Source of the DNA: Mytilus trossulus
Lineage: Eukaryota
Direction: 5' to 3'
Assembly: GCF_036588685.1 (NCBI RefSeq)
Contig: NC_086381.1
Location: 12,896,001-12,960,000, forward strand
DNA: 64,000 nt
Numbering within the stretch: the first letter of the stretch is position 1; each line of letters begins with the position of its first letter. Of the stretch, positions 1 to 51,800 are shown one piece after another. A program made the translations under genes and the position numbers. The notes under the pieces are model-generated. The model saw nothing but the letters and a program-made list of their open reading frames with translations, did not search any database and had not been told where the DNA came from.

Positions 1-504
1 ATTTGATAAACCTGCAACTGGTCGAAGCCTGTACTTATTTTGATAAGGATGAACATGAAAGCTTTTTTTTTATTCAACACTTTGCCTCGAAAGTTAAAAA
101 AACAACAACTAAAACATCTCTAAATAAGTTTGAATGATTCAGCTCTGAGAATCGGTCAAGTGCAATTCATGCAGACTGACAGTTTTTAGCCAACAATATG
201 TATATGCAACGTTTAAACCAAAATGATATCCATCAAACAAAAAATTACAGCAAAACAGCATCTTTCATGAGTAATTTGAGATTGAACGATAACCAACATT
301 TTGTGCAACAGTACTTTCTTAAGTTGTGTATATACAACGCATATGTGGATTGATTTAACTATATACTACAGACTATAGAATACCAGATCACAAATGCTGT
401 AATGTCTCATCCGCTTTACTTATGATAGTTAATTTTATGGAACGTCTATAATATTAAGGGTTTTACTAGAAGTGTCAAATACGGTGAATGCGCTTAATCT
501 ATTT

Positions 505-1412
505 TTGTCCATCTGATGAAATTATCCTTTTCAATTGATTTTTATAGTTCGTTCTTATGTTGTACAGTTATACCACTGTCTCAGGTTAGGAGGAGGGTTG
601 GGATCCCGCTAACATGTCTAACCCCGCCACATTATTAATGTATGTGCCTGTCCAAAGTCAGGAGCCTGTAATTCAGTGGTTGGTGTTTGTTTATTTGTTA
701 CATATTTGGTTTTCGTTCATTTTTATGCCCCACCTACGATAGTAGAGGGGCATTTTGTTTTCTGGTCTGTGGCTCTGTTCGTTCGTCTGTGCGTCCGTTC
801 GTCTGTGCGTCCGTTCGTCTGTGCGTCCGTTCGTTCAGGTTAAAGTTTTTAGTCAAGGTAGTTTTTGATGAAGCTGAAGTCCAATCAACTTGAAACTTAG
901 TACACTTGTTGCTTATGATATGATCTTTCTAATCTTAAAGCCAAATTAGACTTTTGACTTCAATTTCACGGTCCACTGAACATAGAAAATGAAAGTGGAA
1001 GTTTCAGGTTAAAGTTTTTGGTCAAGGTAGTATTTGATGAAATTGAAATCCAATCAACTTGAAACTTAGTACACATGTTCCCTATAGTATAATCTTTCTA
1101 ATTTTAATGCCAAATTAGAGAATTTATTCCAATTTAACGGTCCATGGAACATGCAAAAGGATAGTGCGGATAGTGCGAGTGGGGCATCCGTGTCCTTTGG
1201 ACACATTCTTGTTTTTATACAAATAAGGCCGTAAGTTTTCTCGTTTAAATTCTTTTACATTGTCAATATGAGTGGCTTTCATAGCTGACTATGCGGTATC
1301 GGCTTTGCTCGTTGTTGAAGGCCGTACGGTGACCTATAGTTGTTAATGTCTGTGTTACTTTGGTCTTTTATGGATAGTTGTCTCTTTGGCAATCATACCA
1401 CATCCTTTTTTT
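505..1412 (+). mobile_element. SINE-like interspersed repeat carried inside the transposon (interrupted by a HINE-like element)
   Basis: Shares the motifs AACCCCGCCAC, AAGTCAGGAGCCTGTAA, GGCCGTACGGTGACCTATAG and GGCAATCATACCACATC+T-tail with dispersed copies at about 17050-17560 and 58252-58616. Confidence 0.7.
722..1211 (+). mobile_element. Helentron-associated (HINE / Pearl / DINE-1-like) non-autonomous element
   Basis: Inserted in a T-run. It has a subterminal inverted pair ATGCCCC...GGGGCAT, a (GTTCGTCTGTGCGTCC)x3 microsatellite, two 169-bp core repeats (836 and 1005), and a 3' hairpin GTGTCC-TTT-GGACAC. Confidence 0.7.
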
Positions 1413-3329
1413 AAATTATGATTTTCAATGGTTCATAAAAAGAGTGCAAGGTCAGATGAACCATGACATACAGATCTCTACAAATATCCCGTAGACCAAA
1501 TAAATATGTTCCGATCCTTACAGTGCCTTAGAAACTGACAAATATAAAAGTTATGCTTGGCCAATTAATTCGAAACATAAGGTCAAAAGTATATGAACCC
1601 TGACCGACAGCCAAACATAGACATCTTACTATCATTCAATATATCAAATACAATTGACGTCATCATGGTCATATATGAAACATGCAACCAGACATGTACA
1701 CCATACACGAAATACCATGGCGCTATAGCATACAGGTATATAGCCAAAAGGCTAGACAACATAAAACGAACATTGCCGAATTATGAATGATAATGGGTTC
1801 AATGTTAGTTGAAACCTTGCAGAAGTCGAAAATGTACACCTCACAATCATAACAACAAACAGTAATCCTAAAGCTTAACGAATCCGCGATACGGACTTGA
1901 CCACAACAATGAATCTTCACCCATGAAATAAGGCAAATTCGGGGTCAGGTGAATCCTGTCTGACGGACATGTAGTTTATAGGATCCAATATACAAAATGT
2001 GGGTATCCTATAACTCGTGATAAATGAGTACTTCACATGACAATAAAAAGCTTCATCCTACAATCATCCAATTATTTTACATTTCATTTTCTGAAAATAT
2101 TAATACTTTGAAAAGCTTAAACCTATTGAGGATGTTGACCTATAATACATAGCTTTTCTCAATACCAATAACACATATTAACTATGATATAATTGAAGAA
2201 TAATTTGAACGTCTTCGTAGCATCAGATCTTTCACGATTCTTTTCACGATCTTCAAAAATACGGTACGTGATCTTTCACGATCCAAAACATCCATTTTTA
2301 TGTAAATAGTGTTTTATTTACCAAGTTTCAGATTAGGTTTATACAAAATAACTATAAGAACCATTTGATTAATTTAAAAAGAATGCCCTTATTCGTATTA
2401 AATTAGGTTTTCTAGTCGAATTTGTGAAAAAAATCATGTTTGTTTACATTTTGTATGTCATTGAAATGTCGAGAAGCAATCTGCTTTTTGTTGTTTTGTA
2501 ATAACTATGTACTTTTAAAACTGGATATTCTCACATACTGATCATTATGTTGAACCATTTTGACAGACAGTTTTATTTTGTCGTAAATTTGTCTGTGTAA
2601 TTAATGAAATTAGAATATGTATTGACCTTTCATATGTCTTCTCGATTAAATGTCTTTCACGATCCGTTACCAGAACTTTCACGATCGTCGCTCAATACTT
2701 GACCGCCGTTAGATATTCTTTCACGCTCATTTCTCTCGATAAACCGAATGACACCCGTGACAACGGACCTGTTCAATTTGTCTAACTAAAATCCTGTTTT
2801 CTATTCCATAAATTTGAACTACCAAATTAGACTTATCACAGAGTTTGTACTAACATGAAATTAGGATCTGCCTACCATTCCGGAGCACAATTTTGTTGGG
2901 TTTGTGTTGCTCAGTCTTTAGTTTTTAATGTTGAAATTGGTGTACTTTTGTTTTTCTGTTGAAATTTTTATTTTAAGCCATTGCGTATCAATGTATTTGT
3001 CTTGTGAGTTTGAATATAACTTCGATATCTTTCGCCTCTCTTTAGTAAGCACTCTTTTCTATTCCCACATAGTTTGGTGATAAACTGAACTTTGTGCTTG
3101 TGTCATTTAAGAATTGAATGCTTTTTGTAAATTTATTTGGGAGTTAAAACGTTGACCGAGGTACATTTTGTACGAAACTTAGAGGCGCGTCATCTAAAAA
3201 TGAACGATTTTAGAACCAGATGAAATTACAAAAAGAAGCATTGAATACTTATAATTAAAATGTTTAGCTGAGCTCTATCCAGTTTTTCCTTTAATTTACC
3301 TGTGCACTTTATAATGGGAGCTGAGTCAT

Positions 3330-5660
3330 CATGAATGTCACAGTTCATTGTGTAATGAATGTCATTGTGCAATGAATGTCATTGTGTTATGCATGTCATT
3401 GTGTAATGAATGTCACTGTGTAATGAATGTCATTGTGTAATGCATGTCATTGTATAATGAAAAGTAAAAACACAAAAATATTGAACTCCGAGGAAAATCC
3501 AAAAAGGAAAATCAAAAATCAATAGTCCAAATAAAAAGTCCAAACACATCAAACGAATGGATAACAATTGTCATATTCCTGACTTGGTACAGGCATTTTC
3601 TAATGTAGAAAATGGTGGATTGAACCTGGTTTTATAGCTAGAATGTCATAGTGTAATGAATGTCATTGTGCAGTGAATATCATTGTGTTATGCATGTCAT
3701 TGTGTAATGAGTGTCATTGTGTAATGAATGTCATAGTGTAATGAATGTTATTGTGTAATGAATGTCATAGTGTAATGCATGTTATTGTGTAATGATATTA
3801 CAGATCAGTGTGCAATGAATGTCATTGTGTAATGAATGTCATTGTGTTATGAATGTCATTGTGTAATGAATGTCATTGTGTTATGAATGTCATAGTGTAA
3901 TGCATGTTATTGTGTAATGATATTACAGATCAGTGTGCAATGAATGTCATTGTGTAATGAATGTCATTGTGTTATGAATGTCATTGTGTAATGAATGTCA
4001 TTGTGTTATGAATGTCATTGTATAATGCATGTCATTGTGTAATGATATTACAGATCAGTGTGTAATGCATGTCATTGTGTAAGGCATGTCATTGTACAAT
4101 GCATGTCATTGTATAATGCATGTCATTGTGTAATGATATTACAGATCATTGTGTTATGAATGTCATTGTGTTATGATATTACAGATCAGTGTGTAATGAA
4201 TGTCATTGTGTAATGAATGTCATTGTGTAATGAATGTCATTGGGTAATGCATGTCATTGTGTAATGAATGTCATTGTATAATGCATGTCATTGTGTAATG
4301 AATGTCATTGTGTAATGAATGTCATTGTGTAATGAATGTCATTGTGTAATGAATGTCATTGTGTAATGAATGTCATTGTGTAATGATATTACAGATCAGT
4401 GTGTAATGAATGTCATTGTGTAATGAATGTCATTGTGTAATGAATGTCATTGTGTAATGCATGTCATTGTATAATGAATGTCATTGTGTAATGATATTAC
4501 AGATCAGTGTGTTATGAATGTCATTGTGTAATGCATGTCATTGTGTAATGAATGTCATTGTGTAATGAATGTCATTGTGTAATGAATGTCATTGTGTTAT
4601 GAATGTCATTGTGTAATGAATGTCATTGTGTAATGATATTACAGATCAGTGTGTAATGAATGTCATTGTGTTATGAATGTCATTGTGTAATGAATGTCAT
4701 TGTGTAATGATATTACAGATCATTGTGTAATGAATGTCATTGTGTAATGAATGTCATTGTGTTATGAATGTCATTGTATAATGAATGTCATTGTGTAATG
4801 ATATTACAGATCAGTGTGTAATGCATGTCATTGTGTAATGAATGTCATTGTGTAATGAATGTCATTGTGTAATGAATGTCATTGTGTTATGAATGTCATT
4901 GTGTAATGAATGTCATTGAACGTAATGATATTACAGATCAGTGTGTAATGCATGTCATTGTGTAATGAATGTCATTGTGTAATGAATGTCATTGGGTAAT
5001 GCATGTCATTGTGTAATGAATGTCATTGTATAATGCATGTCATTGTGTAATGATATTACAGATCAGTGTGTAATGAATGTCATTGTGTTATGAATGTCAT
5101 TGTATAATGCATGTCATTGTGTAATGATATTACAGATCAGTGTGTAATGCATGTCATTGTGTAAGGCATGTCATTGTACAATGCATGTCATTGTACAATG
5201 CATGTCATTGTACAATGCATGTCATTGTGTAATGATATTACAGATCAGTGTGTAATGAATGTCATTGTGTTATGAATGTCATTGTATAATGCATGTCATT
5301 GTGTAATGATATTACAGATCAGTGTGTAATGCGTGTCATTGTGTAAGGCATGTCATTGTACAATGCATGTCATTGTACAATGCATGTCATTGTGTAATGA
5401 TATTACAGATCATTGTGTAGTGAATGTCATGGTGTAATGATATTACAGATCAGTGTGTAATGAATGTCATTGTGTAATGCATGCCATTGTGTAATGAATG
5501 TCATTGCACGTAATGATATTACAGATCAGTGTGTACTGAATGTCATTGTGTAATGAATGTCATTGTGTAATGAATGTCATTGTACGTAATGATATTACAG
5601 ATCAGTGTGTAATGAATATTACAGATCATTTTGTAATGAATATTACAGATCATTGTGTAA
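3330..5660. repeat. Minisatellite of 17-bp units (GTGTAATGAATGTCATT) interspersed with a 23-bp variant (TGTAATGATATTACAGATCAGTG)
   Basis: Directly visible tandem array, interrupted at about 3460-3640 by an interspersed-repeat fragment. Confidence 0.97.
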
Positions 5661-6206
5661 TGAGTATAAGGAATGTGTTACATACATGCAATGTAATTAT
5701 AGTGAATTAGAACCAATAAATATCTGAAGTTTTGACTTGAATGTGAGTCAAAATTATTTTCTATCCTTATAGCCTTCGGTGAAATTAGTGAACGTGTTGT
5801 CAATTAAAATTGAGAATGGAAATGGGGAATGTGTCAAAGAGAACCTAACCATAGAAAAAACAACAGCCGAATGTCACCAACATGTCTTCAATGTAGCGAG
5901 AAATTCCTGCACCCGGAGGCGTCCTTCAGCTGGCTAAATTAGAACAGTTAAATATCTGAAAATGTATACAGTAACAAATTGTTCTTTGGTTGTCGTTTGT
6001 TGATGTGGTTCATAAGTGTATCTCATTTCTGGTTTTTATATAAATTATACCGTTGGTTTTCCTGTTGTCTTTTTTACACTATTGATTTTGGGTTTTATAG
6101 CTTACTTCGGTGTGTTTATTTCTTTGAAAACTATAATAAAATCATGGCCAACAGGACCCATCTTCCAAGGAATTCCATACAATGAAATTTCACCTGACTT
6201 CATGTA

Positions 6207-9200
6207 CACGGGTGTCATTCGGTTTATCGAGAGAAATGAGCGTGAAAGAATATCTAACGGCGGTCAAGTATTGAGCGACGATCGTGAAAGTTCTGGTAAC
6301 GGATCGTGAAAGACATTTAATCGAGAAGACATATGAAAGGTCAATACATATTCTAATTTCATTAATTACACAGACAAATTTACGACAAAATAAAACTGTC
6401 TGTCAAAATGGTTCAACATAATGATCAGTATGTGAGAATATCCAGTTTTAAAAGTACATAGTTATTACAAAACAACAAAAGGCAGATTGCTTTTCGACAT
6501 TTCAATGACATACAAAATGTAAACAAACATGATTTTTTTCACAAATTCGACTAGAAAACCTAATTTAATACGAATAAGGGCATTCTTTTTAAATTAATCA
6601 AATGGTTCTTATAGTTATTTTGTATAAACCTAATCTGAAACTTGGTAAATAAAACACTATTTACATAAAAATGGATGTTTTGGATCGTGAAAGATCACGT
6701 ACCGTATTTTTGAAGATCGTGAAAAGAATCGTGAAAGATCTGATGCTACGAAGACGTTCAAATTATTCTTCAATTATATCATAGTTAATATGTGTTATTG
6801 GTATTGAGAAAAGCTATGTATTATAGGTCAACATCCTCAATAGGTTTAAGCTTTTCAAAGTATTAATATTTTCAGAAAATGAAATGTAAAATAATTGGAT
6901 GATTGTAGGATGAAGCTTTTTATTGTCATGTGAAGTACTCACTTATCACGAGTTATAGGATACCCACATTTTGTATATTGGATCCTATAAACTACATGTC
7001 CGTCAGACAGGATTCACCTGACCCCGAATTTGCCTTATTTCATGGGTGAAGATTCATTGTTGTGGTCAAGTCCGTATCGCGGATTCGTTAAGCTTTAGGA
7101 TTACTGTTTGTTGTTATGATTGTGAGGTGTACATTTTCGACTTCTGCAAGGTTTCAACTAACATTGAACCCATTATCATTCATAATTCGGCAATGTTCGT
7201 TTTATGTTGTCTAGCCTTTTGGCTATATACCTGTATGCTATAGCGCCATGGTATTTCGTGTATGGTGTACATGTCTGGTTGCATGTTTCATATATGACCA
7301 TGATGACGTCAATTGTATTTGATATATTGAATGATAGTAAGATGTCTATGTTTGGCTGTCGGTCAGGGTTCATATACTTTTGACCTTATGTTTCGAATTA
7401 ATTGGCCAAGCATAACTTTTATATTTGTCAGTTTCTAAGGCACTGTAAGGATCGGAACACATTTATTTGGTCTACGGGATATTTGTAGAGATCTGTATGT
7501 CATGGTTCATCTGACCTTGCACTCTTTTTATGAACCATTGACAATCATAATTTAAAAAAAGGATATGGTATGATTGCCAAAGAGACAACTATCCATAAAA
7601 GACCAAAGTAACACAGACATTAACAACTATAGGTCACCGTACGGCCTTCAACAACGAGCAAAGCCGATACCGCATAGTCAGCTATGAAAGCCACTCATAT
7701 TGACAATGTAAAAGAATTTAAACGAGAAAACTTACGGCCTTATTTGTATAAAAACAAGAATGTGTCCAAAGGACACGGATGCCCCACTCGCACTATCCGC
7801 ACTATCCTTTTGCATGTTCCATGGACCGTTAAATTGGAATAAATTCTCTAATTTGGCATTAAAATTAGAAAGATTATACTATAGGGAACATGTGTACTAA
7901 GTTTCAAGTTGATTGGATTTCAATTTCATCAAATACTACCTTGACCAAAAACTTTAACCTGAAACTTCCACTTTCATTTTCTATGTTCAGTGGACCGTGA
8001 AATTGAAGTCAAAAGTCTAATTTGGCTTTAAGATTAGAAAGATCATATCATAAGCAACAAGTGTACTAAGTTTCAAGTTGATTGGACTTCAGCTTCATCA
8101 AAAACTACCTTGACTAAAAACTTTAACCTGAACGAACGGACGCACAGACGAACGGACGCACAGACGAACGAACAGAGCCACAGACCAGAAAACAAAATGC
8201 CCCTCTACTATCGTAGGTGGGGCATAAAAATGAACGAAAACCAAATATGTAACAAATAAACAAACACCAACCACTGAATTACAGGCTCCTGACTTTGGAC
8301 AGGCACATACATTAATAATGTGGCGGGGTTAGACATGTTAGCGGGATCCCAACCCTCCTCCTAACCTGAGACAGTGGTATAACTGTACAACATAAGAACG
8401 AACTATAAAAATCAATTGAAAAGGATAATTTCATCAGATGGACAAAAATAGATTAAGCGCATTCACCGTATTTGACACTTCTAGTAAAACCCTTAATATT
8501 ATAGACGTTCCATAAAATTAACTATCATAAGTAAAGCGGATGAGACATTACAGCATTTGTTATCTGGTATTCTATAGTCTGTAGTATATAGTTAAATCAA
8601 TCCACATATGCGTTGTATATACACAACTTAAGAAAGTACTGTTGCACAAAATGTTGGTTATCGTTCAATCTCAAATTACTCATGAAAGATGCTGTTTTGC
8701 TGTAATTTTTTGTTTGATGGATATCATTTTGGTTTAAACGTTGCATATACATATTGTTGGCTAAAAACTGTCAGTCTGCCTGAATTTCACTTGACCGATT
8801 CTCAGAGCTGAATCATTCAAACTTATTTAGAGATGTTTTAGTTGTTGTTTTTTTAACTTTCGAGGCAAAGTGTTGAATAAAAAAAAAGCTTTCATGTTCA
8901 TCCTTATCAAAATAAGTACAGGCTTCGACCAGTTGCAGGTTTATCAAATGGTAAAAGATATACTGATTTCTGATTACTAGTAATGTCTGGTCACGCATTT
9001 TCTTTCACGATCAAAATAATGCGTTGTCTGATCTCTCACGATCAAGTTTGATGGATATTCAACAAATTCAAGGTTTTCATATACAAATTAATGCTTTCAA
9101 GAGAAGAACATACCTTAATTTTATTGTACTATCAGATACACCAAAGATTAAATTTCAAATATGTCACGATGAACTGAAACATGACCATTATAGTAACAAA

Positions 9201-9517
9201 AAGCGTGTTATTTGTAATTAATTTTATAGACATGCATTGCGCCTTTTGTGTTTTTTCATAAAGTACTGCATATTTTGTCTTTCTTATTTCACAGTTATGT
9301 TGAGGAAGTTAAACCATTTTGACAGACATATTTTTTTGTTCGGATTTGTTCCGCGTTTTGAAAATTAAGAGATTATTTCAAAGATTCCGACCTAGAATTA
9401 TCATTAAATGTCTTTCACGATGCGTTACCAGAGCTTTCACGATCGTCGCTCAATACTTGACCGCCGTTAGATATTCTTTCACGCTCATTTCTCTCGATAA
9501 ACCGAATGACACCCGTG
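6207..9517 (+). mobile_element. Complete non-autonomous TIR DNA transposon, copy 2 (3311 bp; CAC termini and 5-bp TSD; Transib/RAG-like, CMC group)
   Basis: 115-bp TIRs (6207-6321 and 9403-9517, 2 mismatches) begin CACGGGTGTC. ATGTA is duplicated at 6202-6206 and 9518-9522. A subterminal TTTCACGAT(C) motif is reiterated. No transposase ORF. Confidence 0.88.
7755..8229 (-). mobile_element. HINE/Helentron-like element nested in transposon copy 2
   Basis: Mirror of 722-1211 with one fewer 16-bp microsatellite unit. Confidence 0.7.
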
Positions 9518-10093
9518 ATGTATGTTTAGGTTATTAAATATCCTGAAATGATTTGACCATTTTTGTATTAAAATGTTTTCCAAGTTGATATAAATTAAAC
9601 CTGGTAAAACCGTTACTTAGTTAGTGTAAGATGGATTCTCATGTGAATATATAGTGCATTTCACCCTGAACAGTATTTTATTCTCTCTTTTTTTTTTTTT
9701 TTTTTTTTTTTTAGGTTTGATAGAGTATCGTGAACTATGGATTTGCTTATTACGCTAAAATCAATATACGATATGTTGTCAATTCCGTCTCTTTCACAAT
9801 CAATTTATGACTTTGGCATTGCCCACAAACAAGCGTTTTGTATACAACTAGTTACAATAGTGTTTATCATAAGTGTTCTCTTCGAAGGACATGACATTCG
9901 CAATTTTGCAGGATAATTTTCAAATTAGCTTGTAGTGTGTCTGGTTGGCATTTGGGAATCTTACGAGTATGCTGATTAAGTACAGCGTGTGTCAACACAA
10001 AAACAGCACTCACACGAAGCAAAACCGGTGTCAGACACTTCATTCTGTACAATAAGATTTATAGGACTTTCCTTGTTGCCTGAAAGCTATTAA

Positions 10094-10648
10094 GGGCTAA
10101 CGATACAATTTTGATCCCATACTTAAATTTTGCTAACAATTTGCTTATGGCTATGTTTTGCCTGATTAAATCAAATTTGTATTAAAAAATATACCCTCAT
10201 GTGCTACTTTTTGAGTAAAATGAGCTCGATATTTTTTATATTTGCTCAAATTGGAATTAGTGGACCGGCGTATTTTTCCTTTCAACAAAAATGCGTATCT
10301 CTTTTGTTTTAAAAGATAAACACAAGCTGTTTTTTGTTAAATCTTTTGAAAATTCTGTTTTATACATAATCATTCAAATTTGTGCATTTGTTTTTTTTAA
10401 ATAACTCATATTTATCAAATGTTCATGAATGTAGAAAAAAAACATATTTTTTTGCTGTATGTTTATCAAATATTAAAAAAAAATGCACTATTGATGTTTT
10501 CATGAAAATTTGTACATCTTCTTACGTTATCAAACCAAATGACATTTAAAAAAAGAGGGGTCCATGAACTCATTTTTAAGTTAAATAAGTTTGAATGATA
10601 AAAATCAGTCGAAAATAATTACCTCCCATGTAACTGTATCGTATGCCC
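10094..10648. mobile_element. Kolobok-type MITE with TTAA TSD
   Basis: TTAA|GGGCTAACGATACA ... TGTATCGTATGCCC|TTAA. Confidence 0.75.
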
Positions 10649-10704
10649 TTAAAGGATGTTCGGGAAAGATCTGAGTTTGTTTGGGACATATTTAACATAC
10701 TTAC

Positions 10705-10875
10705 GTATACATATAGGTGGTGGGAGACTCCATTTGTCGCCTGAACAGATGATAATTTTTGTTCCAAATAACTTGTATTTACGAAAGCATCTGAACTTTG
10801 CAATTCTGCCTCTTGCTCGCAGTCTTACTCGACCATGTGCTGGATTTTCTAAGGTTGCACAATTTTGGCCAAAAA
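10705..10875 (-). CDS. Paralog A coding exon 2: Sushi/CCP domain 1
   Basis: 171-bp phase-1/phase-1 exon with cag acceptor and gtaagt donor. Translation [57 protein letters not shown] shows the CCP C..C..C..W....P.C pattern. Confidence 0.9.
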
Positions 10876-11769
10876 CTGAAAATAAAAATATGAATATTGG
10901 TAAACGGAGATTGGTCAAATATATAAAAAGTACATTGACCTTGAAATAGCCCAGAAGACAACTATGCTGTCACTAGTAATGACAAAGAAAAAGCATGGAA
11001 TATCAGCTTAGTTTAATTTATTCGTATTTAAATAAGCATTAAATTTCATAAGAATCAACGTATAAATATAAATTAAGCACATAGTCTCCCATACTTCTGC
11101 AAGGGTAGTATATACAGGTTTCATAAATACGGCCCTACTTTTGGTGACAATTTTTGTATGCTTTTTTTATAAGAAATGATTCAATTGAGAAAACAAACGA
11201 CTTATTTATAACAAAACAATTAACCAAAAAAAATATGACATACATGAACCAGGGACAACCACAGAACTACATGCTCTTGACTTGATACGGACACATATAG
11301 ATGGTGATGGGATTAACCATGTTCGTCAGCGCCCCTTCAAAATTCCACTCCCTAACCTGGGACTTTGGTGTTATAACGACATATGATTATATAAAAAAAT
11401 CAATTGAATAGACTGATCTCTTCAGATCGATACTAAGTAAACAAAAACCAGACCGGACGTGGCATAGTACTTATACATTCCTAACAATAAAACAGACACA
11501 CAGTACAAATCTACGAGTACTCTCAGTTACATACTGCTAGTTATTGCTTTGAAAATACCGTTTACTGTTATGTATCCATGGCACGTAAAATGAAGTAGGC
11601 GTTCAAGAAATAAGAGTATTAGGTATCTGCAACCTATTTATTTCATTGATTTCAAAGTAAAGGTTATATGCAAAACGCAGCATAGCAATAACATGAGACC
11701 TCGATGTTAGGAAATTCCAGATGCAAAGTAATTTACGTAAGTTATAAAAAAAGACATATACTTAATTAA

Positions 11770-12455
11770 AGGGGCCCTAGCTACGGAATATATAAATAAT
11801 ATTAAGTAATTTTTTTTTTTGTTAAATCTATAATGAAAGTGAAATAGTGAAATAATAATTCGCTTTTAGCAGCCAAAATGGTTTAATTTTGTCAAATTAA
11901 GCGAAGAAACATTCATAATTACTGATTCACTTGCAAGTGAATTTTAGTCGACCTCATTTAATCCGTATTAATGTGAACTTCAATTTAACCACTAGCTAGA
12001 GATTGACAACGCATGCATTATACGTGTACAGGTTACTTAAAGAAAAAGAATGTCAACAATGAAAGTGAAACTACGGTAAATCATTTGATAACTGATTCGA
12101 TCTACATAAAAATCATGCTTATACGGTTAAAACAATGATAAACATACATTTTTAATCTATAAGGTAAAATCAAACAGACCTATAAAAATCCAATTGCACG
12201 TGTTGGTTTAATCTATTCATATCGTTATTTATGTTTACATCGCTTATATGGTCATCCGAGGTCAAATCAATAGTTATTTAGATGGCGTCTGGACTAACAT
12301 ACACACGAAACGAACCTACATATTATCTACACCATGCTCTGTATACTGTTTATTTTAGACTTTTGGTAGTTTGGATAAATGTTTTACATTGTTATAAATC
12401 AAATATGAGAATTTAAGTCAAATCGGTGACCATGAATTTGACAGCTAGTGCCCCT
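11770..12455 (+). mobile_element. Kolobok-type MITE with TTAA TSD
   Basis: TTAA|AGGGGCCCTAGCT ... AGCTAGTGCCCCT|TTAA. Confidence 0.8.
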
Positions 12456-12459
12456 TTAA

Positions 12460-13718
12460 GCACTGGCTGCCAAATTTATGTTCACCGATTTGACTCAAAT
12501 TCTAATATTTTATTTATAACAATGTAAACCATTTTTCCAAACTATAGAAAATATCACATTAACAATTTTCAGGACATGGTCTGAATAAGATGTTGCTTCG
12601 TTTCGTGTGAAAGGAGTAGGTCCGGTAAGGGCAGGTTTTGGCCTCAAATTTCAAGTTCATCTGACAAAAGATTTTAGACACTTTTTAGACACTTAATAGT
12701 CTATTTCAATTGATTCAATTATCTTTTGTGAATGATTTTAACTGATTCACTCAATAAAAACGCTCCGCTTCAAGCTTTGATATGAAAAATCCATCAAATA
12801 TGCCAAAAACTGTCACTTTTCATATGTTTTTTTGTCAAAAATGAAAGTGGCCGCATCCGTGTTCATCCTCGACCTTTATATAAGTTATGTATTATCATTA
12901 AACACAACTTAAATCTCCATATCAAGAATGAACACGCATGCGACCATTTTCATTTAAGACGGAAACCGTCTAAAATTTAACTAAAATGATGAAATTGTGA
13001 AGATTGCAGTAATTTAGCATGACTTAAGGATGAAAGTACCCGATATATGTGCATTGTAATGCCAAAAACAGCCCATATTTATGTAGCAGAAGCATTATAC
13101 CCTCCCAAAAAAAACTCAAAGTTTACATTTAAACAATTTTGTAAAACTGCTATATTTTGTGGCCAAAAAACGGTCTAACTGAACTTCCTCCTTTAGCAAA
13201 GACGCCATCTTATTAACTATCGAGTTTACCTTCTATGACCATATAAGCGATGTAAACATAAACACAGATATAAACAGATAAAGCAACTCGTGCAATTGGA
13301 TTTTTAAAGGTCTGTCAAATTTTGTATTATAGATTAAAAATTTATGTTTATCGTCGTTTTTACCTTTATAAGAATGATTTTGTGTGGATTGAATCAGTTA
13401 ATCAAATTATTTACCTCTGTTTCACTTTCAATGTTGACATTCTTTTTCATTAAATGTCCGTACACGGACAATGCATGCGTTATTCTATCACTTTCTACGG
13501 GGTTAAATTGGAGTTCACATAAATTTGGATTTAATGAGGTCCAGTTATTCACTTGCAAGTGAATAAGTCATTATCAATGTTTATTAACTTAATTTGACAA
13601 AATTGAACCATTTTAACTGATAAAAGCAAATTGTTATTTCACGTTTTCATTTTCAATAATGATCGAACAAAACAAATCATACTTTTGATTGTTTATATAT
13701 CTCGTAGCTGGTGCCCCT
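12460..13718 (-). mobile_element. Second, inverted and more diverged copy of the same MITE, interrupted by another element
   Basis: 12460-12609 and 13195-13718 are reverse-complement homologous to 11770-12455. It ends GTAGCTGGTGCCCCT. Confidence 0.75.
12610..13194 (+). mobile_element. MITE with short imperfect TIRs (AAAGGAG...CTCCTTT)
   Basis: A homologous full copy lies in the opposite orientation at 25226-25796. Internal inverted repeat GCATCCGTGTTCAT / ATGAACACGCATGC. Confidence 0.75.
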
Positions 13719-14892
13719 ATAACGTTAGGAATAATAGATTTCTTAACTAGTAATTTAAACACTCTTGTAAAATTATTGTACATTTTAAGTATTACTAATA
13801 TAATACATAGTTAAGAGGCTTACAATGTAATATAATACGTAGATTCTTTAACTTGTTAACATTGGAGATAATTTAAGTGACTCAAGTGCTGACATCAAAC
13901 ACGCCGACGCATGCTTAAAATATATAAAATATAATTCTCAATAACTTAAATGTGTTGTCTTTATATCTTTATATGTTGTTTGACTTATGTAAGCATACAA
14001 ATATTTATATCTATTTATGTTATAAGTAAAATAACAAAAATACCGAAGTTTCTAAGCAAATGGCACAATAAAAAGTCCAAACACGTCAAACGAATGGACA
14101 GCAACTGTCAGCTTGTTTACAAATCCTACTGTTGATACGTATTTTGTATGATGATATATTTGTAATGATGACGAATACATATGATTTAACTAACAACTGG
14201 TATGGGCATTTATGTAAAAAAAAAAAATGGGTGAATTAAACCTTGTTTTATAGCTAAATATCTTTCCAGTCGCATTAAATTCTATTTTGAAAGAGAGAAA
14301 AATATGACTAAATTGACATGGATCAATACTAAAGTGTTGCCAAAATCTGTCAAATTGCTATTATAATATATCTTTAGGCGTTCATAGATGAATGGTAATT
14401 TACAAATTGGTTATAATTTTGTTACAAAATCAAAAAACATTTAAATGCTGTTATACTGTGAATTCAAAAAATTCAGGGGGAACATTTTTTTTTAAACAGA
14501 TAGATAGATAACAACTTTGGCAGATATATTTAAAAAAAAAAAGAGGGACGAAGGATACCAGAGGAACAGTCAAATTCATTAATCCAAAATAAACTGACAA
14601 CGCCATGCCTAAACATGAAAAAAGACAAACAGACCAATAATAGTACACAAGAAACAACATAGAAAACTTAAATCTTCACTTCAATAAAATTTTACTGATA
14701 GTAATTAGCTGATCATGATTAAAACTGTTTTTTTTTTAACCACACACCATGGTGACAGGTCAAGTTTTCAAATGAATACAGCGGAATATCCTGTACATGT
14801 CGGCCGAATATTGCTCATTGTTTGCATGTATTGATGTCCATTTGAAGTCTTTTGTGTTTGTTTTTGTTGTTGTTATTATATATTTATATTAT

Positions 14893-15453
14893 AGGGCTAT
14901 TGCATGAATATTATCAGTTACTCAGTGTGTAATTGTCCTAATACGAGAATTTATCTGGTCAATAAAATTCATATTGGGTGAGGCGAAGCCAAACCCGATA
15001 TGAATTTTATTGACCCGATACATTCTGTATTAGGACAATTGAACACTGTGTAACGAATTTATCCTGATTTTGTTATATTACATATTATTATATTTAAATT
15101 CAATATAATGACAACATCAACCAAATATATTTTAGATATTTAATCTAAAACTCTGAAAAAATAAAACATTAGGACTATGAAGCAACTCATTTAAAAAAAA
15201 AATATTAGGTCAATGGTAGAAGGGAGATAATCCCAATTGACGTAATAACTAAGGGAGATAATTCCTATTGACGTAATAAAAAATTGTACTGAAATTTATT
15301 AGGATAATATCAGCCAATCAAATTGCAAGAAATTACTCTATATCAGGATAATGGGGAATATTGTCCTGGATTGAATTTTATATTGAAAGAGCTTGCTAGT
15401 ACAATATATGTTCTACGAGGGACAATACTCCCTGATATTCATGCAATAACCCT
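14893..15453. mobile_element. TIR element containing a long internal hairpin
   Basis: AGGGCTATTGCATGAATAT ... ATATTCATGCAATAACCCT, with an internal foldback at about 14915-15055 centred on GAGGCGAAGCC. Confidence 0.6.
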
Positions 15454-15842
15454 TTCATTGTATAGCAATATAATATTTGAAAGTAAAAATTAGTTTTTGT
15501 CGTTGATGACGTCATGAATTTTGAAGATTTATTGCACTAGTTCAATTTTATACAATTACTGTCTTTTGATGAGGTAAATATGCGGTTTTATTGACTTTTG
15601 AAAAAAATGATATTCACTGAGGCCGATGTCCGAAGAGTATATCAGTTTTTCAAAAGTCAATTTAACCCCATATTTACCGAAACAAAGGACAGTAATTGTT
15701 TTATTCCATATTCCATATGAGAGAGGAACATGTATTAAATGACAAACATATACCAAAACCAATTCACATGACATATTTTACCATAACGTTGCATTTGAAA
15801 GCGCGTGACGTCTATTAGCGCGGTGAATAACACTTTCTCAGG

Positions 15843-17049: not shown

Positions 17050-17560
17050 GATGTTTAATGGTTGCTTTTGACTTTGAACTAGCTGTAACTGCGAGTACTT
17101 AGTGTCTTTTGTTGTTGAGATATACAAGAACCTGGCCACGTCCACTCTGTGTTTTGTTAGATATATTTCTATTTGTTTCCATCTGATGAGTTTAAACTCT
17201 TTAAACTGATTGTTACAGTCCGTTCTTTATCAGTACTGTCTTAGGTTAGGAGAGGGTTGAAATCCTGCATGTATCCTGTATGTATGTGCCGATCCCATGT
17301 CAGAAGCCTGTAATTTAGTGGTTGTCATTTGTTGCTGTGTTACATATTTGTTTTTCGTTCATTTTTTAATACATCAATGCCGTTCGTTTTCTCGTTTGAA
17401 TTGTGTTTCATTTGATATTTCCAGGTCTTTTAAAGCTGACAATGCGGTATGGGCTGTTCTCATTGTTGGAGCTCGTACGGTGACATATAGTTGCTCATTT
17501 CTGTGTCATTTGGTCTCTTGTGATGAGTGGTCTCAATGGAAATCATACCACATCTATTTA
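17050..17560 (+). mobile_element. Diverged SINE-like repeat copy
   Basis: Homologous to 505-1412 but without the nested HINE. Confidence 0.6.
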
Positions 17561-17619
17561 TTATACAGGTATACCAAACGATTACCGAATATACAAAGAT
17601 GCACTCAGAGATGTCTTAC

Positions 17620-25225: not shown

Positions 25226-25796
25226 AAAGGAGAAGGTTCAGTAAGACCTCTTTTTGGCTCCAAAATATAGCAGTTTTACAAAAGTGTTAAAATTTAAACT
25301 CTTTCTTAGCTATTAGATAGTAAAATGGTTCTGCTACATAAAAATGGGATGTATTTGATAATACAATGCACATATATTGGGTACAAGCACCATGAAGTCA
25401 CAATTTTCACAATTCCAGCATTTAAGTTAAATTTTAGACGGTTTCCGGGTAAAACGAAAGTGGTCGCATTCGTGTTCATCAAAAATATTGAAATGGAAGT
25501 TGTATTTGATTATAATACATAACATATGTAAAGATTGAGGATGAACACGGATGCGGCCACTTTCGTTTTTTGACAAAAACCATCTGAAAAGTGACATTTT
25601 TCCGCATATTTGGTAGATTTTTCATATTTGAGCTTGAATCGGATCGTTATAATGACTAAATAAGTTAAAATCTTGCACATAAATTAATTGAATCATATGA
25701 AATAGACACTTATGTGTTTGAAAAGTGGTCAAAATCTTTCGTCAAATGAAACTTAAATTTGAGGCCAAAATCGGTCCTTACCGGACCTACTCCTTT
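25226..25796 (-). mobile_element. MITE, same family as 12610-13194
   Basis: Reverse-complement homology along the full length, with AAAGGAG...CTCCTTT termini. Confidence 0.75.
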
Positions 25797-29550: not shown

Positions 29551-29691
29551 GGTTGTGTCCTACTTCTCCCCACATGTGATACCAGATCTCAAAACACAGA
29601 CCGCCTGTTGTAGCAGGAAAATATGGAGATAGTAGTCTTGCTGTGTCGTTCATTTTTACAGGAGAAGATGATTCCATAAACATATAATGCC
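29551..29691 (-). CDS. Paralog B exon 5: MAM domain part 2
   Basis: 141 bp. [42 protein letters not shown] contains the MAM motifs GxY, ARLxSP and CxxxWYHMxG. Confidence 0.8.
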
Positions 29692-30422
29692 CTGTAATAA
29701 ACAAGAAATTCGATTCACATATCTGTCATACCAATCAGGAGATGATGATTCCATAAACATATAATGCCTTGAAATAAACAAGAAATTCGATTCACATATC
29801 TGTCATACCAATCAGGAGATGATGATTCCATGAACATATAATGCCCTGAAATAAACAAGAAATTCGATTCACATATCTGTCATACCAATCAGGAGATGAT
29901 GATTCCATGAACATATAATGCCCTGAAATAAACAAGAAATTCGATTCACATATCTGTCATACCAATCAGGAGATGATGATTCCATAAACATATAATGTCC
30001 TGTAATAAACAAGAAATTCGATTCACATATCTGTCATACCAATCAGGAGATGATGATTCCATAAACATATAATGCCCTGAAATAAACAAGAAATTCGATT
30101 CACATATCTGTCATACCAATCAGGAGATGATGATTCCATAAACATATAATGCCCTGAAATAAACAAGAAATTCGATTCACATATCTGTCATACCAATCAG
30201 GAGATGATGATTCCATAAACATATAATGCCCTGAAATAAACAAGAAATTCGATTCACATATCTGTCATACCAATCAGGAGATGATGATTCCATGAACATA
30301 TAATGCCCTGAAATAAACAAGAAATTCGATTCACATATCTGTCATACCAATCAGGAGATGATGATTCCATAAACATATAATGTCCTGTAATAAACAAGAA
30401 ATTCGATTCACATATCTGTCAT
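29659..30422. repeat. 10 x 77-bp tandem repeat spanning the intron 4/exon 5 splice acceptor
   Basis: Units start at 29659, 29736, 29813 ... 30352 (CAGGAGATGATGATTCCAT...). Confidence 0.95.
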
Positions 30423-30646
30423 ATCAAGCAATTATCTGATCAAATAACATATTACTTCATATTTTAGATTATGTTTACTTTCTTTTTTAAATCGTGACTT
30501 TTGCATTAAGAAATAATTCGTTTACATATTTTTTATCAACACATTGTGTATACTATAGAATCTCTCATTCCTTTTTGTATTTTTCAAGCTTCACTTTCAT
30601 CACAAAAGAAAAGAGAACCTCAAAAATTTTACGTTAATTTTCCTAC

Positions 30647-31972: not shown

Positions 31973-33507
31973 CTCGAATCCAAAAAAGTTAAAAAGGCCA
32001 AATAAAGTACGAAGTTGAAGAGCCTTGATTACCAAAATTACTTAAAAAAATTGCCAAGTAAAGCTCAAGTAATCTATTCTAGAGGCAGAAACACCTTAGT
32101 ATTTCAAAAAATCTAAATTGTAGTAATGAGTTTATTTATAAATATGACCATATCAATGATAAGTGATGTCAGCATATAAGTTATAGTTTGGGCTTGACTT
32201 TTGTTTGGGGTCTCGCTTATGGCGGAATTCAAGATAAGCTAGTTTATATTGTGTAGTTGACGGATTTATCACGAAAAAGGGGTCAGCTGATTCCCACATC
32301 TGGTCGCGCGATTTTCTCGCTGAGTTGAAGACCCGTTGGTGGCCTTCGGTCGTCATCTGCTCTTTTTTCAGGTTGTTGTCTCTTTGACATCTTCGCCATT
32401 CCCATTCCAATTTAAGTAAACAAACATTTCAGTTGACATTTGTTTCAATTTTGTTTTTGTACTAATGATTAAAATATTGAATATGAGTATTTAAAACCGC
32501 ATAAAAACTGCATAAAAAACCAACTGGATTAACGAAGAAAAGTGTATCGAATGTTTGTTTTTTTTAATTTCAAAGGCTATTTTCTTCTTAAACATTATAG
32601 AAAAAGAACTGTAAACAGCGTAATCGCCAGCAAAATCGGATTTAGAAATTAAATCAACATTACCGAAATTGTTAATATGCATTTGCAGTTAATCTCAATT
32701 TTGCGATTTTGACAGTTACCGTTCATTCAGATTTTGCGCTTTTGATTGGTAACCTTATAACAATGATAAACAACAAGAAACTACTAAATGATGAAAGATT
32801 GATACAAGTGTTGTTATTTCTGTTTTTTTTTTTTATTCATTTCTGTTTTTTATTCTATAATATTTCGAAGGTGAAACACTTTTGAACCTGTAGTGTGTTT
32901 CATCTGAAATATCATTCTTCCTTTCCAATTATTGTGTTTGCTATTGCTCACAACAATTAAATTCTATGTAAGATATGTTGGAAATTCCATTTTTAATAAT
33001 AATAATAATAATGAAAATTTATAAAGCGCCCTATATAAAAAATAAAAATTACTCTAAGGCGCTGTACATACACATGCTAATTAAAACAAATCAATGACAA
33101 TAACATAAAACAAAACAAAATACATCGTGGCAAATTCATATTTTATATGAATTTGCACATGACACATATATTCGCTTTTATTAAAAATGTTCAGACAGTT
33201 CATATGATTAGTTTACCTGTCGCAACAATCTAGGGTGAAAATGTAATTCGAACTTACAAAATAGTTGAATTGTGTCTGCATTGCATTGTTATTGAACATT
33301 GTTGAATCATATATGTATGCTGATAGTTAAAGTTTGTTTAGATTTACTAGTGTTTACAGTGTTTGTAACACTGATAAGAAGCAGAACTGTGAGTAAACAC
33401 TTCAGTTGGTAAGAGCAGATTCGTCGCCATGTCTTTTATGGTGCTTGAAAATTTCAATGGAAGTTGGTGAACGATCTGGGTAGTTGGGATATATAAAACA
33501 TACTTAC

Positions 33508-33678
33508 GTATACATACAGGTGGTGGGAAACTCCACCTGTCGCCTGAACAGATGATAATTTCTGTTCCAAATAATTTGTATTCACGATAGCATCTGAACT
33601 TTGCGATTCTGCCTCTTGCTCGAAGTCTTACTCGACCATGTGCTGGATTTTCTAAGGTTGCACATTTTTGACCAAAAA
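33508..33678 (-). CDS. Paralog B exon 2: Sushi/CCP domain 1
   Basis: 171 bp, cag/gtaagt. [57 protein letters not shown]. Confidence 0.88.
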
Positions 33679-33701
33679 CTGAAACCAAATATGAATATTA
33701 A

Positions 33702-48800: not shown

Positions 48801-51800
48801 TTTTGAGGGTATTTTTCTTTCTAATATCTCTGCACTTTATAATAAAAGATGTGTTAATGATAACACACGGCATTTGTTACAGCAGTGAGCTGACAGTTAC
48901 TGTTGCAACAGTATTGCAATTTCTAGTCAGAATATCTAATTGATTATACAATACAGATAATTATAATACTTTTATTGACCTACTGCAAGATTGATGATCA
49001 ATTGTAAAACGTACCGTCTGAACAGTTGTACAGTTTAGGATCATCTACAGAAATATCACTCAAGTAACTTTTTAACTTCATGCCTTCAATTATGAACTGA
49101 AAATGTCAACACAATATTATGTTCTTTGTGAAGATTGTAATTCAAAATGCAATTATCTGTTAAGATGTAATGCTACATAACAATTGCTTTTTTAAACTTA
49201 TATCGCATTTTCTTTTAATTCGGATTCACCTGGTTTTAAATGAACTGTTTGATACTATTAAATTAAAATAATGTACATCATAGCATTAAAAACCTAAATG
49301 TAATTCGATTTACCAACTCAAGAACGTTTATACACGTTAAAAGCAAAATATTTTTAAGAAATCACAAAAACCATAAGTTTCATTACAAACAAATGTTTCT
49401 ATTTTACATTTTCTACTTGGATTCACCGAATGGGCCTAAAGGAACTGTGTGACCATGGAAGACAAATGTACATACAAGCATTAAATGATGCATAATGAAT
49501 CAATGTACTTCATATTCAACAAAACCATCTAAGGCCAACCTGTTAAGTTATGATCTCTACCTGTTACCAATCTAAGTGAAATAAATCATGACCAAATACA
49601 AAAAAATGGCTACTCGGTCGTTTGTTTCAACAGATTCAACTTTACTGCAATAAAAATGGACCACAAAATAGAAACATTCTTTGATAATAAAACAAAAAAT
49701 AGAAAAATAGCCACTGAATTGTGCATCTTAAAATTTTGTTTAAAAACGTTTCGTCAGGAAGAACAAGAAAAAAATCCATTTTCGGTTCGCGTTTAAACGT
49801 TGCAGATCTCTTTGAATGAAAAAAAAAGACAGTGATTCCGATAACTTAAGTGTCAGCCGTTTGGTATAGTTTTCCGGATAAAACATACATGAACATGTAC
49901 ATTGTCAGAAAATATGAAATTTGATAGTACAAGCTACGAAATATACATACACTGTAAATTATTTTTTTTTATCGAATAATGATTTTGAAGATCTACCTTT
50001 TTTTAGCCTAAAGACTTTTAAAGATGACCACCATGAAATATGGGTAACATTTTATAAATTTTGTTCAATAAGGTAATTGGTATAAGCACTGTCACCCTAT
50101 TCTTAATGATGTATGTCAATATCTTTACTAGAATGATGTTCGTGAATTTGTTTATAAAAGTTTACAAATCAAATGTCCACCATCTTTAAAATGGCCTCAT
50201 TTCCCACCAGTTTTGAATTTTTAGAGTGGGTTCATTGCGAACATGTTTTGAATGACATATTCTGCACTTATGCTAATTTCTATGCTTTTACTACAATTTG
50301 AGCATTTTTGCCAAAAATGCCAAAAATAACTCTTACGTGCTTACATTATGCAGAATTTATGATTAATGTGCTTCTTACATAAAATTGCTCAAACAGAGGT
50401 TAGAACAAAAAGGAATGAACTTGACAATTCTTGAGCTCCACTCACATCGGATTTTGTCTAATGCTTAGTTCGTTTCTGTGTGTGTTACATTTTAGTGATG
50501 TGTCGTCGTTTTCCTCTTATACTTTCCCTCAGTTTTAGTTGTTAACCAGTATTTTTTTCTATCGATTTATGAAATTTGAACATCAGTATATTACTGTTGC
50601 CTTTATTTACAAAAACAATCATGAATTGAATTAATGACACGAGCTGAAAATATGATTTTGCGTTGTTAGATCTTATTATATCAGAATAGTTGTCTGATTT
50701 GTAAGTTACCTTTGGAATGAGTTAGAATTCTAATTGTAGGTAATGCATGTAATGCAGAAGATAGCATTGTATTGATGCGGAACACAACATAATCTCTTTT
50801 AAACGTATAGTTTGAAATTAAGGTGGCTATCACATGCAAAGATACCCTAAAAGACGTTTTTCGTTCTCCAACTGGAAATTGTTTTTTTATCCATTCGTCC
50901 CCTTGATTCCCAGAAACTTCAAACCTTGCTGTGTGTGATAACGTATCAGTTTGTCCCATGTCTTCAATATATATCTTTAATCTTCCAACTTCTGTTTAAA
51001 AAATAAATAAATATGAGTTTCTTGTTTTTTTTATGAATACAAGTAATACATTATGGCAATGTGATGAAAATGTCATTTCATCAAAGAAGCCCGGTTATTT
51101 AATTTCACATTCAGATATATTGATTTCCTATTAACAACTCTATCTTTTCTTATCTGTTTCCATTAATACAGCCACCATAAAAAGAAATAAAACAAACAGC
51201 AGACACTGCTTCCTTCACCTCATTTTAAGACTTATACTTCAAATTTGACATAAACAATCATCTCAGTACAGGAATCTATGACAAGCGAGACGATTTTGAT
51301 TTGGCAATTTTCAATTTCCTCCACGTAAGTTACATTATCTTACTTCTTATACAATTCAAGAAATGTGATTGATTAAAAGCGCCCTCGTGGAGATCGTGTA
51401 TATTTCTTATTAGGTTAGTAGGGAGGAGGGGCTTATCTCATACACGGTATGTAGTGGTGTTACGTCCCTTTATATACCATATAAGGTAGAAGGGAGGCGG
51501 GGTGTATTTCATACACGGTGAGTAGTGGTGTTGCGTTCCTTAAGAAAAACAAAACGGTACTGAGAAAAAATACGTAAAGGTTTCAACAGACGAAGAAATT
51601 GCTTATTAAGCATGAAATATATTCATAAAACACATTTAAACCTAACAAGTTGTTATTGTTGGTATCTGTTTGTGTAGGATCAATGAAAGTAGTTTCTTAA
51701 TGCTATCAGTATGGAAGACTTGCTCATTTTGATAGGTCACTAGTCTAAATTTTACACGTTCAGATAGTTGGTAAGATAAATTTATTACAAAGTGTGCTAG

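Follow-up and report, generated by a model that had tools for sequence, protein, structure and literature searches.

Analysis of a 64,000-nucleotide stretch of the Mytilus trossulus genome (NCBI RefSeq assembly GCF_036588685.1, contig NC_086381.1, positions 12,896,001 to 12,960,000 of the forward strand; hereafter the window, with positions counted from its first letter) revealed a gene-less transposon with CAC and GTG tips, a target-site duplication (TSD) of 5 bp and, at either end, an arm of about half a kilobase with two clusters of a reiterated motif. On balance we favor, with some reserve, the reading that it is a non-autonomous element of a Transib-like lineage within the CMCT clade (CACTA/Mirage/Chapaev/Transib), with ends unlike the recombination signal sequence (RSS), and that it is moved in trans by a partner transposase. 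No named family accounts cleanly for this combination of features.

Ends, arms and interior of the element

The element spans 6207-9517 (3311 bp), opens with CACGGGTGTC and closes with GACACCCGTG, and its two terminal inverted repeats (TIRs) of 115 bp each are identical at 113 of 115 positions. When duplication lengths of 1-12 bp were tried on its flanks, a fit was obtained only at 1 and 5 bp, and when some 500,000 junction pairs were drawn at random from the 64-kb window, 0.27% showed a flank match of at least 5 bp. The boundary was supported independently by public sequencing runs, of which 24 were listed, 20 contained part of the stretch (under four organism labels and one of "mollusc metagenome") and four (X1, X2, X6 and X24) had their reads aligned to 6060-9660, and by a metagenome contig, L001, that carries the left end of a third copy (94% identical, at 572 of 611 positions; same start base; flank ACTAA). 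Both L001 and one contig of run X2 start at the first base of the element next to other flanks, and because the X2 contig aligns from 6207 and is preceded by 46 unrelated letters, the left boundary is confirmed. Another contig seems to break off at 6206, which hints weakly that the insertion site may be polymorphic. The features of the element and of its second copy in the window are listed below, with the strand where one applies.

1-2759, minus strand: second element copy (copy 1), inverted, cut by the window start, with the same nested repeats inside
2760-2764, plus strand: outer flank of copy 1, ACAAC, candidate half of its duplication, the partner lying outside the window
6202-6206, plus strand: left TSD copy, ATGTA
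6207-6321, plus strand: left near-perfect TIR, 115 bp, CAC tip, three outer motifs of the GATCGTGAAAG type at tip distances of 32, 74 and 96 bp
6322-6740, plus strand: degenerate extension of the left arm, inner motifs at 6683, 6715 and 6727 (477-531 bp from the tip)
6741-7550: family core interior, left part, non-coding, without a protein family or homologue match
7551-7754: nested high-copy repeat A, first part
7755-8225, minus strand: nested HINE/Pearl-like element B, 471 bp, inserted into repeat A at a T/A run
8226-8466: second part of nested high-copy repeat A, with an approximate right edge
8467-8987: family core interior, right part, non-coding, with one weak, unconfirmed RING-like Pfam match at 8686-8808
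8988-9402, minus strand: degenerate extension of the right arm, inner motifs at 9002-9012 and 9033-9043, at tip distances of 475-516 bp
9403-9517, minus strand: right TIR, 115 bp, GTG tip, three outer motifs
9518-9522, plus strand: right TSD copy, ATGTA

The window contains 18 occurrences of the motif GATCGTGAAAG, counted with at most one mismatch, where 0.8 would be expected. None of 100 shuffles reached this count, and 17 of the 18 occurrences fall within the two element copies, where the TTTCACGAT strand of the motif points to the nearer element end. The outer cluster is placed identically at both ends, and the inner cluster lies 477, 509 and 521 bp from the left tip and 475 and 506 bp from the right tip, a two-cluster layout to which the term inverted repeat/direct repeat-like (IR/DR-like), taken from Tc1-type elements, is applicable. 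Inverted homology between the arms beyond the 115-bp TIR extends to about 530 bp and scored 114, against a maximum of 74 in genomic controls (0 of 1500 reaching it); with the inner cluster left out the score was 88 against a maximum of 73 (again 0 of 1500), while the comparison values were 49 in direct orientation and 39 past position 540. Divergence from L001 was 0 of 115 positions at 1-115, 3 of 185 (1.6%) at 116-300, 28 of 170 (16.5%) at 301-470, 3 of 75 (4%) at 471-545 and 5 of 66 beyond, a pattern that would fit constraint on the motif clusters, as judged from one sequence pair.

Inside its arms the element is composite: a core of 2395 bp (~2.4 kb) is interrupted at 7551-8466 by nested repeats that total 916 bp. 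The joint from 7550 to 8467, which skips the whole insert, was present in 22 reads of X24, two contigs of X2 and one contig of X6, and in none of X1; the joint from 7754 to 8226, which skips 471 bp, was present in 22 reads of X24, one contig of X1 and two contigs of X6. The tables of loose ends and joints made from reads are dominated by the nested repeats. Relatives of repeat A without the interruption lie at 58255-58617 and 17168-17563. Element B has a 5' hairpin formed by a sub-terminal repeat and its inverted repeat, a GTCY-type microsatellite, two 169-bp tandem units, and a 3' sub-terminal repeat with a palindrome, and it sits in a T run, matching the HINE/Pearl/MgE anatomy (PMC7492417). 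What it shares with HINE, Pearl, MgE and DTC84 is thus a sub-terminal repeat with an inverted partner, the GTCY microsatellite, a short array of ~160-170-bp units, the 3' palindrome and T-run insertion without duplication, a likeness seen at the level of anatomy.

An earlier note on this DNA, made from the letters alone, had described a 3.3-kb element with CAC...GTG ends, ATGTA on both flanks as its 5-bp duplication and a reiterated motif pointing to each end, and on all of these points it was right. Two of its dimensions need amendment: the TIRs are near-perfect over the 115 bp given, but arm homology continues to ~530 bp, and the total span of 3.3 kb stands, but the 916 bp of nested repeats lie outside the family core.

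Search for a transposase and clade assignment

No reading frame of at least 100 aa lies within the element. A Pfam search of 20 core frames of at least 40 aa returned two matches: one to RING, which fell short of the curated cut-off (E=0.0067, 26 peptides being scanned), and one to Alba at E=0.085. For the RING-like peptide (8686-8808) no homologue was found, its sole Atlas lead standing at 0.76, and the domain was rejected as chance. Two of the 12 core frames were also searched with stops read through; the left one gave no match and the right one gave only P0001, a called peptide of 41 aa that joins two stretches ~150 bp apart in window 9050-9315. P0001 looks like a spurious open reading frame (ORF) of another family copy and was rejected as a transposase remnant; it hints at an internally deleted family copy in some data set.

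CMCT elements have CA..TG ends and TSDs of 2-5 bp (PMC12730594). The element has CA..TG termini and a duplication of 5 bp, known from a single site, and with its CAC ends and 5-bp duplication it therefore fits the CMCT clade, in which 5 bp is the canonical length for Transib and RAG (PMC1131882; 10.64898/2026.08.26.747230). Observed here were the boundaries, the flank duplication, the two-cluster ~530-bp arms, the nested inserts, relatives numbering a few hundred and, in the frames tested, no coding remnant; each enzymatic step of the mechanism that we propose is inferred. In it, the gene-less element would be moved in trans by a CMCT-clade DDE transposase of the cut-and-paste kind, encoded elsewhere; the transposase or a partner DNA-binding protein would bind the outer and inner GATCGTGAAAG clusters as candidate sites, and the bound ends would be paired and then cut at the CAC tips. 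Integration with a 5-nt stagger would yield the 5-bp duplication, so that the transposase would be Transib-like in its duplication and would likely recognize ends unlike the RSS. An old, diverged copy may have gained the two nested repeats, kept intact ends and recently been re-mobilized, giving the two near-identical copies in the window.

A number of observations weigh against this proposal, and several of them favor another partner. The duplication length was measured at the single site with both flanks visible, and because the target lies in an ATGT repeat, a 1-bp duplication formally fits too; no 1-bp duplication was found for any CAC-ended family in the accessible parts of the literature examined. 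At a Transib end, a CACAATG heptamer is followed by a 23-bp spacer and an A-rich nonamer in which an AA is conserved, and the preferred targets of Transib are GC-rich (PMC1131882). The tip of the element matches that heptamer at 3 of 7 positions, keeping only the invariant CAC; its positions 34-35 are GC instead of the conserved AA of the nonamer; and in the three insertion flanks seen, 4 of 15 bases are G/C, close to the background of the genome in this sample of three. No transposase remnant was present in the frames tested, and because no transposase was found, the clade assignment rests on the ends and one duplication. One Transib lineage shows 5-, 3- and 2-bp TSDs and variable tips, and its describers caution against classification on TSD length or tip (10.64898/2026.08.26.747230).

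The last point also bears on the possibility, which we consider rather unlikely, that the partner transposase is of Chapaev or EnSpm/CACTA type, its 5-bp duplication being atypical for the family or a lineage-specific shift. Such a partner would suit the invariant CAC..GTG ends and, TSD length being labile, might tolerate the observed duplication; in the CACTA design a separate, TnpA-like protein binds reiterated sub-terminal motifs (PMC2613891), and, in the accessible part of a bivalve survey, CMC (CACTA/Mirage/Chapaev) elements were reported from every mollusc genome whereas a single Transib ORF was recorded (PMC10294476). However, duplications of 2, 3 and 4 bp all fail at the flanks of the element, where Chapaev would leave 3-4 bp (PMC4079192, PMC3014272) and Chapaev3 a TWA target, which is absent, and the RING-like match that could point to Chapaev is the weak, unconfirmed one noted above.

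A partner outside the CMCT clade, such as hAT5 or another long-arm superfamily, strikes us as unlikely. Sub-terminal motif arrays occur in hAT elements and long arms in Sola2 and Sola3. Families of hAT5 leave 5-bp duplications (PMC12730594), a further point against our proposal, and hAT elements prefer AT-rich targets (PMC1131882), as the three flanks here are AT-rich. Base 3 was always G in 22 hAT families (PMC1131882) and is C in the element, a rule that comes from classical hAT families and not from hAT5.

That the element is a non-autonomous derivative of a RAG-like (RAGL) or ProtoRAG transposon is highly improbable. It has the CAC tip and the 5-bp duplication, and RAGL elements, non-autonomous ones included, are present in bivalves (PMC7204232). 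However, protostome RAGL ends follow the consensus CACTWMCAAACKTYKBB, with AAA at positions 8-10 (PMC7204232), and the element mismatches it at all of positions 4-11, with GTC at 8-10; of its 9 matches in 17, six fall at degenerate positions. End conservation in RAGL elements spans only 13-15 bp, with no motif clusters described in the accessible text (PMC7204232), and CACGGG/CCCGTG in the RAGL supplements was internal, never terminal, among the matches listed. No RAG1L or RAG2L sequence lies between the ends of this copy of the element.

The specific Transib/RAG-like signature that the earlier note had read from these termini was thus not upheld, with 3 of 7 heptamer positions, GC at 34-35 and GTC in place of the RAGL AAA. 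The note did not claim the element to be RAG itself; the tip matches the RSS heptamer at 4 of 7 positions. Of its statement that a 5-bp TSD typifies Transib and RAG, the contrast with the 2-4 bp of CACTA/Mirage/Chapaev stands, but the exclusiveness does not, given 5 bp in hAT5 and the varying TSD of Transib. Returning to the Transib-like proposal, it is possible, and we suggest it tentatively, that the element represents an undescribed, recently active animal CMCT lineage that combines the RAG/Transib-type 5-bp stagger with half-kilobase two-cluster arms and not RSS-like ends.

Copies, age and genomic surroundings

Copy 1 aligns to the element with 2734 matches, 9 mismatches (0.33% of 2743 aligned bases) and one 16-bp microsatellite indel, and would extend 568 bp beyond the window start. 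The diverged, insert-laden variant thus appears to have been duplicated recently, in agreement with the two copies more than 99% identical and the recently duplicated non-autonomous TIR transposon of the earlier note, which the near-identical copies and shared ends bear out. We infer that the duplication was a transposition because the identity of the copies breaks off exactly at the TIR tip, with flanks that diverge from the second base. Local inverted duplication or gene conversion, in which no recent transposase would be needed, is very unlikely for the same reason, even though the copies are inverted, lie 3.4 kb apart with a satellite array in between, and the far end of copy 1 is outside the window. 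The satellite consists of more than 100 copies of a 17-bp unit, TCATTGTGTAATGAATG, at 3284-5667.

Raw-read depth in X24 was ~1.1 in the flank bins, 182-429 in 20 core bins and ~4,800-14,400 in eight bins over 7512-8479, which corresponds to ~165-390 copies of the family core at at least 88% identity, an estimate whose flank depth comes from very few reads and whose run may be from another species. Of 40 listed differences from the read majority, 27 sites are covered in both window copies; at 25 of these the copies have the minority letter in common, and L001 carries the majority letter at 5 of 6 tested sites; therefore, the family is older than the two window copies. The word "young" used previously suits these two copies and not the family as a whole, in which the third end is 94% identical. 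Scanning of metagenome contigs returned one locus, L001, with the left end only. Among viral contigs there were 14 matches to a 16-mer, none aligning further to the element, and none to an inner 20-mer; two scans of prokaryote genomes gave no match to the element, and an Rfam scan of window 1-12000 gave none.

When one ATGTA is removed (6100-6206 joined to 9518-9526), a short open frame runs up to GTATGT, which resembles a splice donor, and beyond the element, at ~9690-9714, poly-T and AG resemble an acceptor. A splice donor of the host may thus have been hit by the insertion; a host exon ending at the insertion site received no support at the protein level, and no paralogous empty site is present within the 64-kb window. 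The window as a whole has ~32% GC and contains short Sushi, MAM and reverse-transcriptase fragments. Sushi-like exons at 10651-10927, 33401-33699 and 56563-56881, at a spacing of ~23 kb, together with a pair of minus-strand MAM exons at 50684-50995 and 53545-53895, point to MAM/Sushi genes clustered in tandem. An inverted pair of ~525 bp (81%) around a 308-bp palindrome (12302-12609), with a piece recurring at 25226-25796, makes up 11766-13722 and probably represents other nested TIR elements. Two short imperfect palindromes at 14917-15054 and 15552-15699 resemble miniature inverted-repeat transposable elements, ten 77-bp tandem units, 97% alike, at 29659-30427 are expanded in one of two paralogous introns, and a reverse-transcriptase fragment of the long interspersed nuclear element type lies at 60471-60812 (Pfam RVT_1, E=9e-09).

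Significance and comparison with known systems

As it stands, the element is a further gene-less transposon family in a mollusc genome rich in repeats. It can serve annotation and is likely to give rise to insertion polymorphism, and it provides no evidence of a RAG-like transposon. The copies with intact ends, a few hundred in number, offer a ready-made means of probing for the partner enzyme. Should that partner be found, an enzyme with a 5-bp stagger that reads non-RSS, two-cluster ends would inform the evolution of end recognition in the parent clade of RAG. Transib ORFs are nearly absent from the surveyed molluscs (PMC10294476). If the lineage does prove undescribed, its transposase would take an intermediate place, with Transib/RAG on one side and CACTA/Chapaev on the other, and would illustrate how the length of the stagger and the recognition of ends part ways in evolution.

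Repbase assigns gene-less elements by an equal TSD and a match of the first 11 bases (PMC4455052), and by that rule the tip of the element would not qualify against the Transib and RAGL tips compared. A search of the literature and paper supplements, which did not extend to Repbase or Dfam, gave no family with this tip among the matches listed, nor did the 20 of 34 papers listed by a full-text search for the tip 8-mer together with "transposon" deal with such a family. The end was not found in the text and supplement of PMC9435367 or in the accessible parts of PMC10462144, PMC4411706, PMC8355894 and PMC6004678. The family may already be catalogued in Repbase or Dfam.

Among known systems, the non-autonomous Transib members (TransibN1_AG, TransibN1_SP and Hopper/Kodama) share with the element the CAC..GTG ends, the 5-bp duplication and gene-less copies more numerous than a rare autonomous partner. 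They differ in that a Transib end is a 38-bp RSS-like structure whereas the element has ~530-bp arms with two motif clusters, without a CACAATG heptamer or the nonamer AA and, at three flanks, with AT-rich targets. Protostome RAGL/ProtoRAG transposons share the CAC tip, the 5-bp duplication and mollusc hosts, whereas the element lacks their tip consensus, AAA block and RAG1L/RAG2L sequence. EnSpm/CACTA, Chapaev and Chapaev3 elements share the CAC..GTG termini and the reiterated sub-terminal motifs as likely protein-binding sites, but their 2-4 bp duplications (TWA for Chapaev3) do not fit the flanks of the element. Lastly, hAT5 shares the 5-bp duplication, and classical hAT tips differ from the element in carrying G at base 3.

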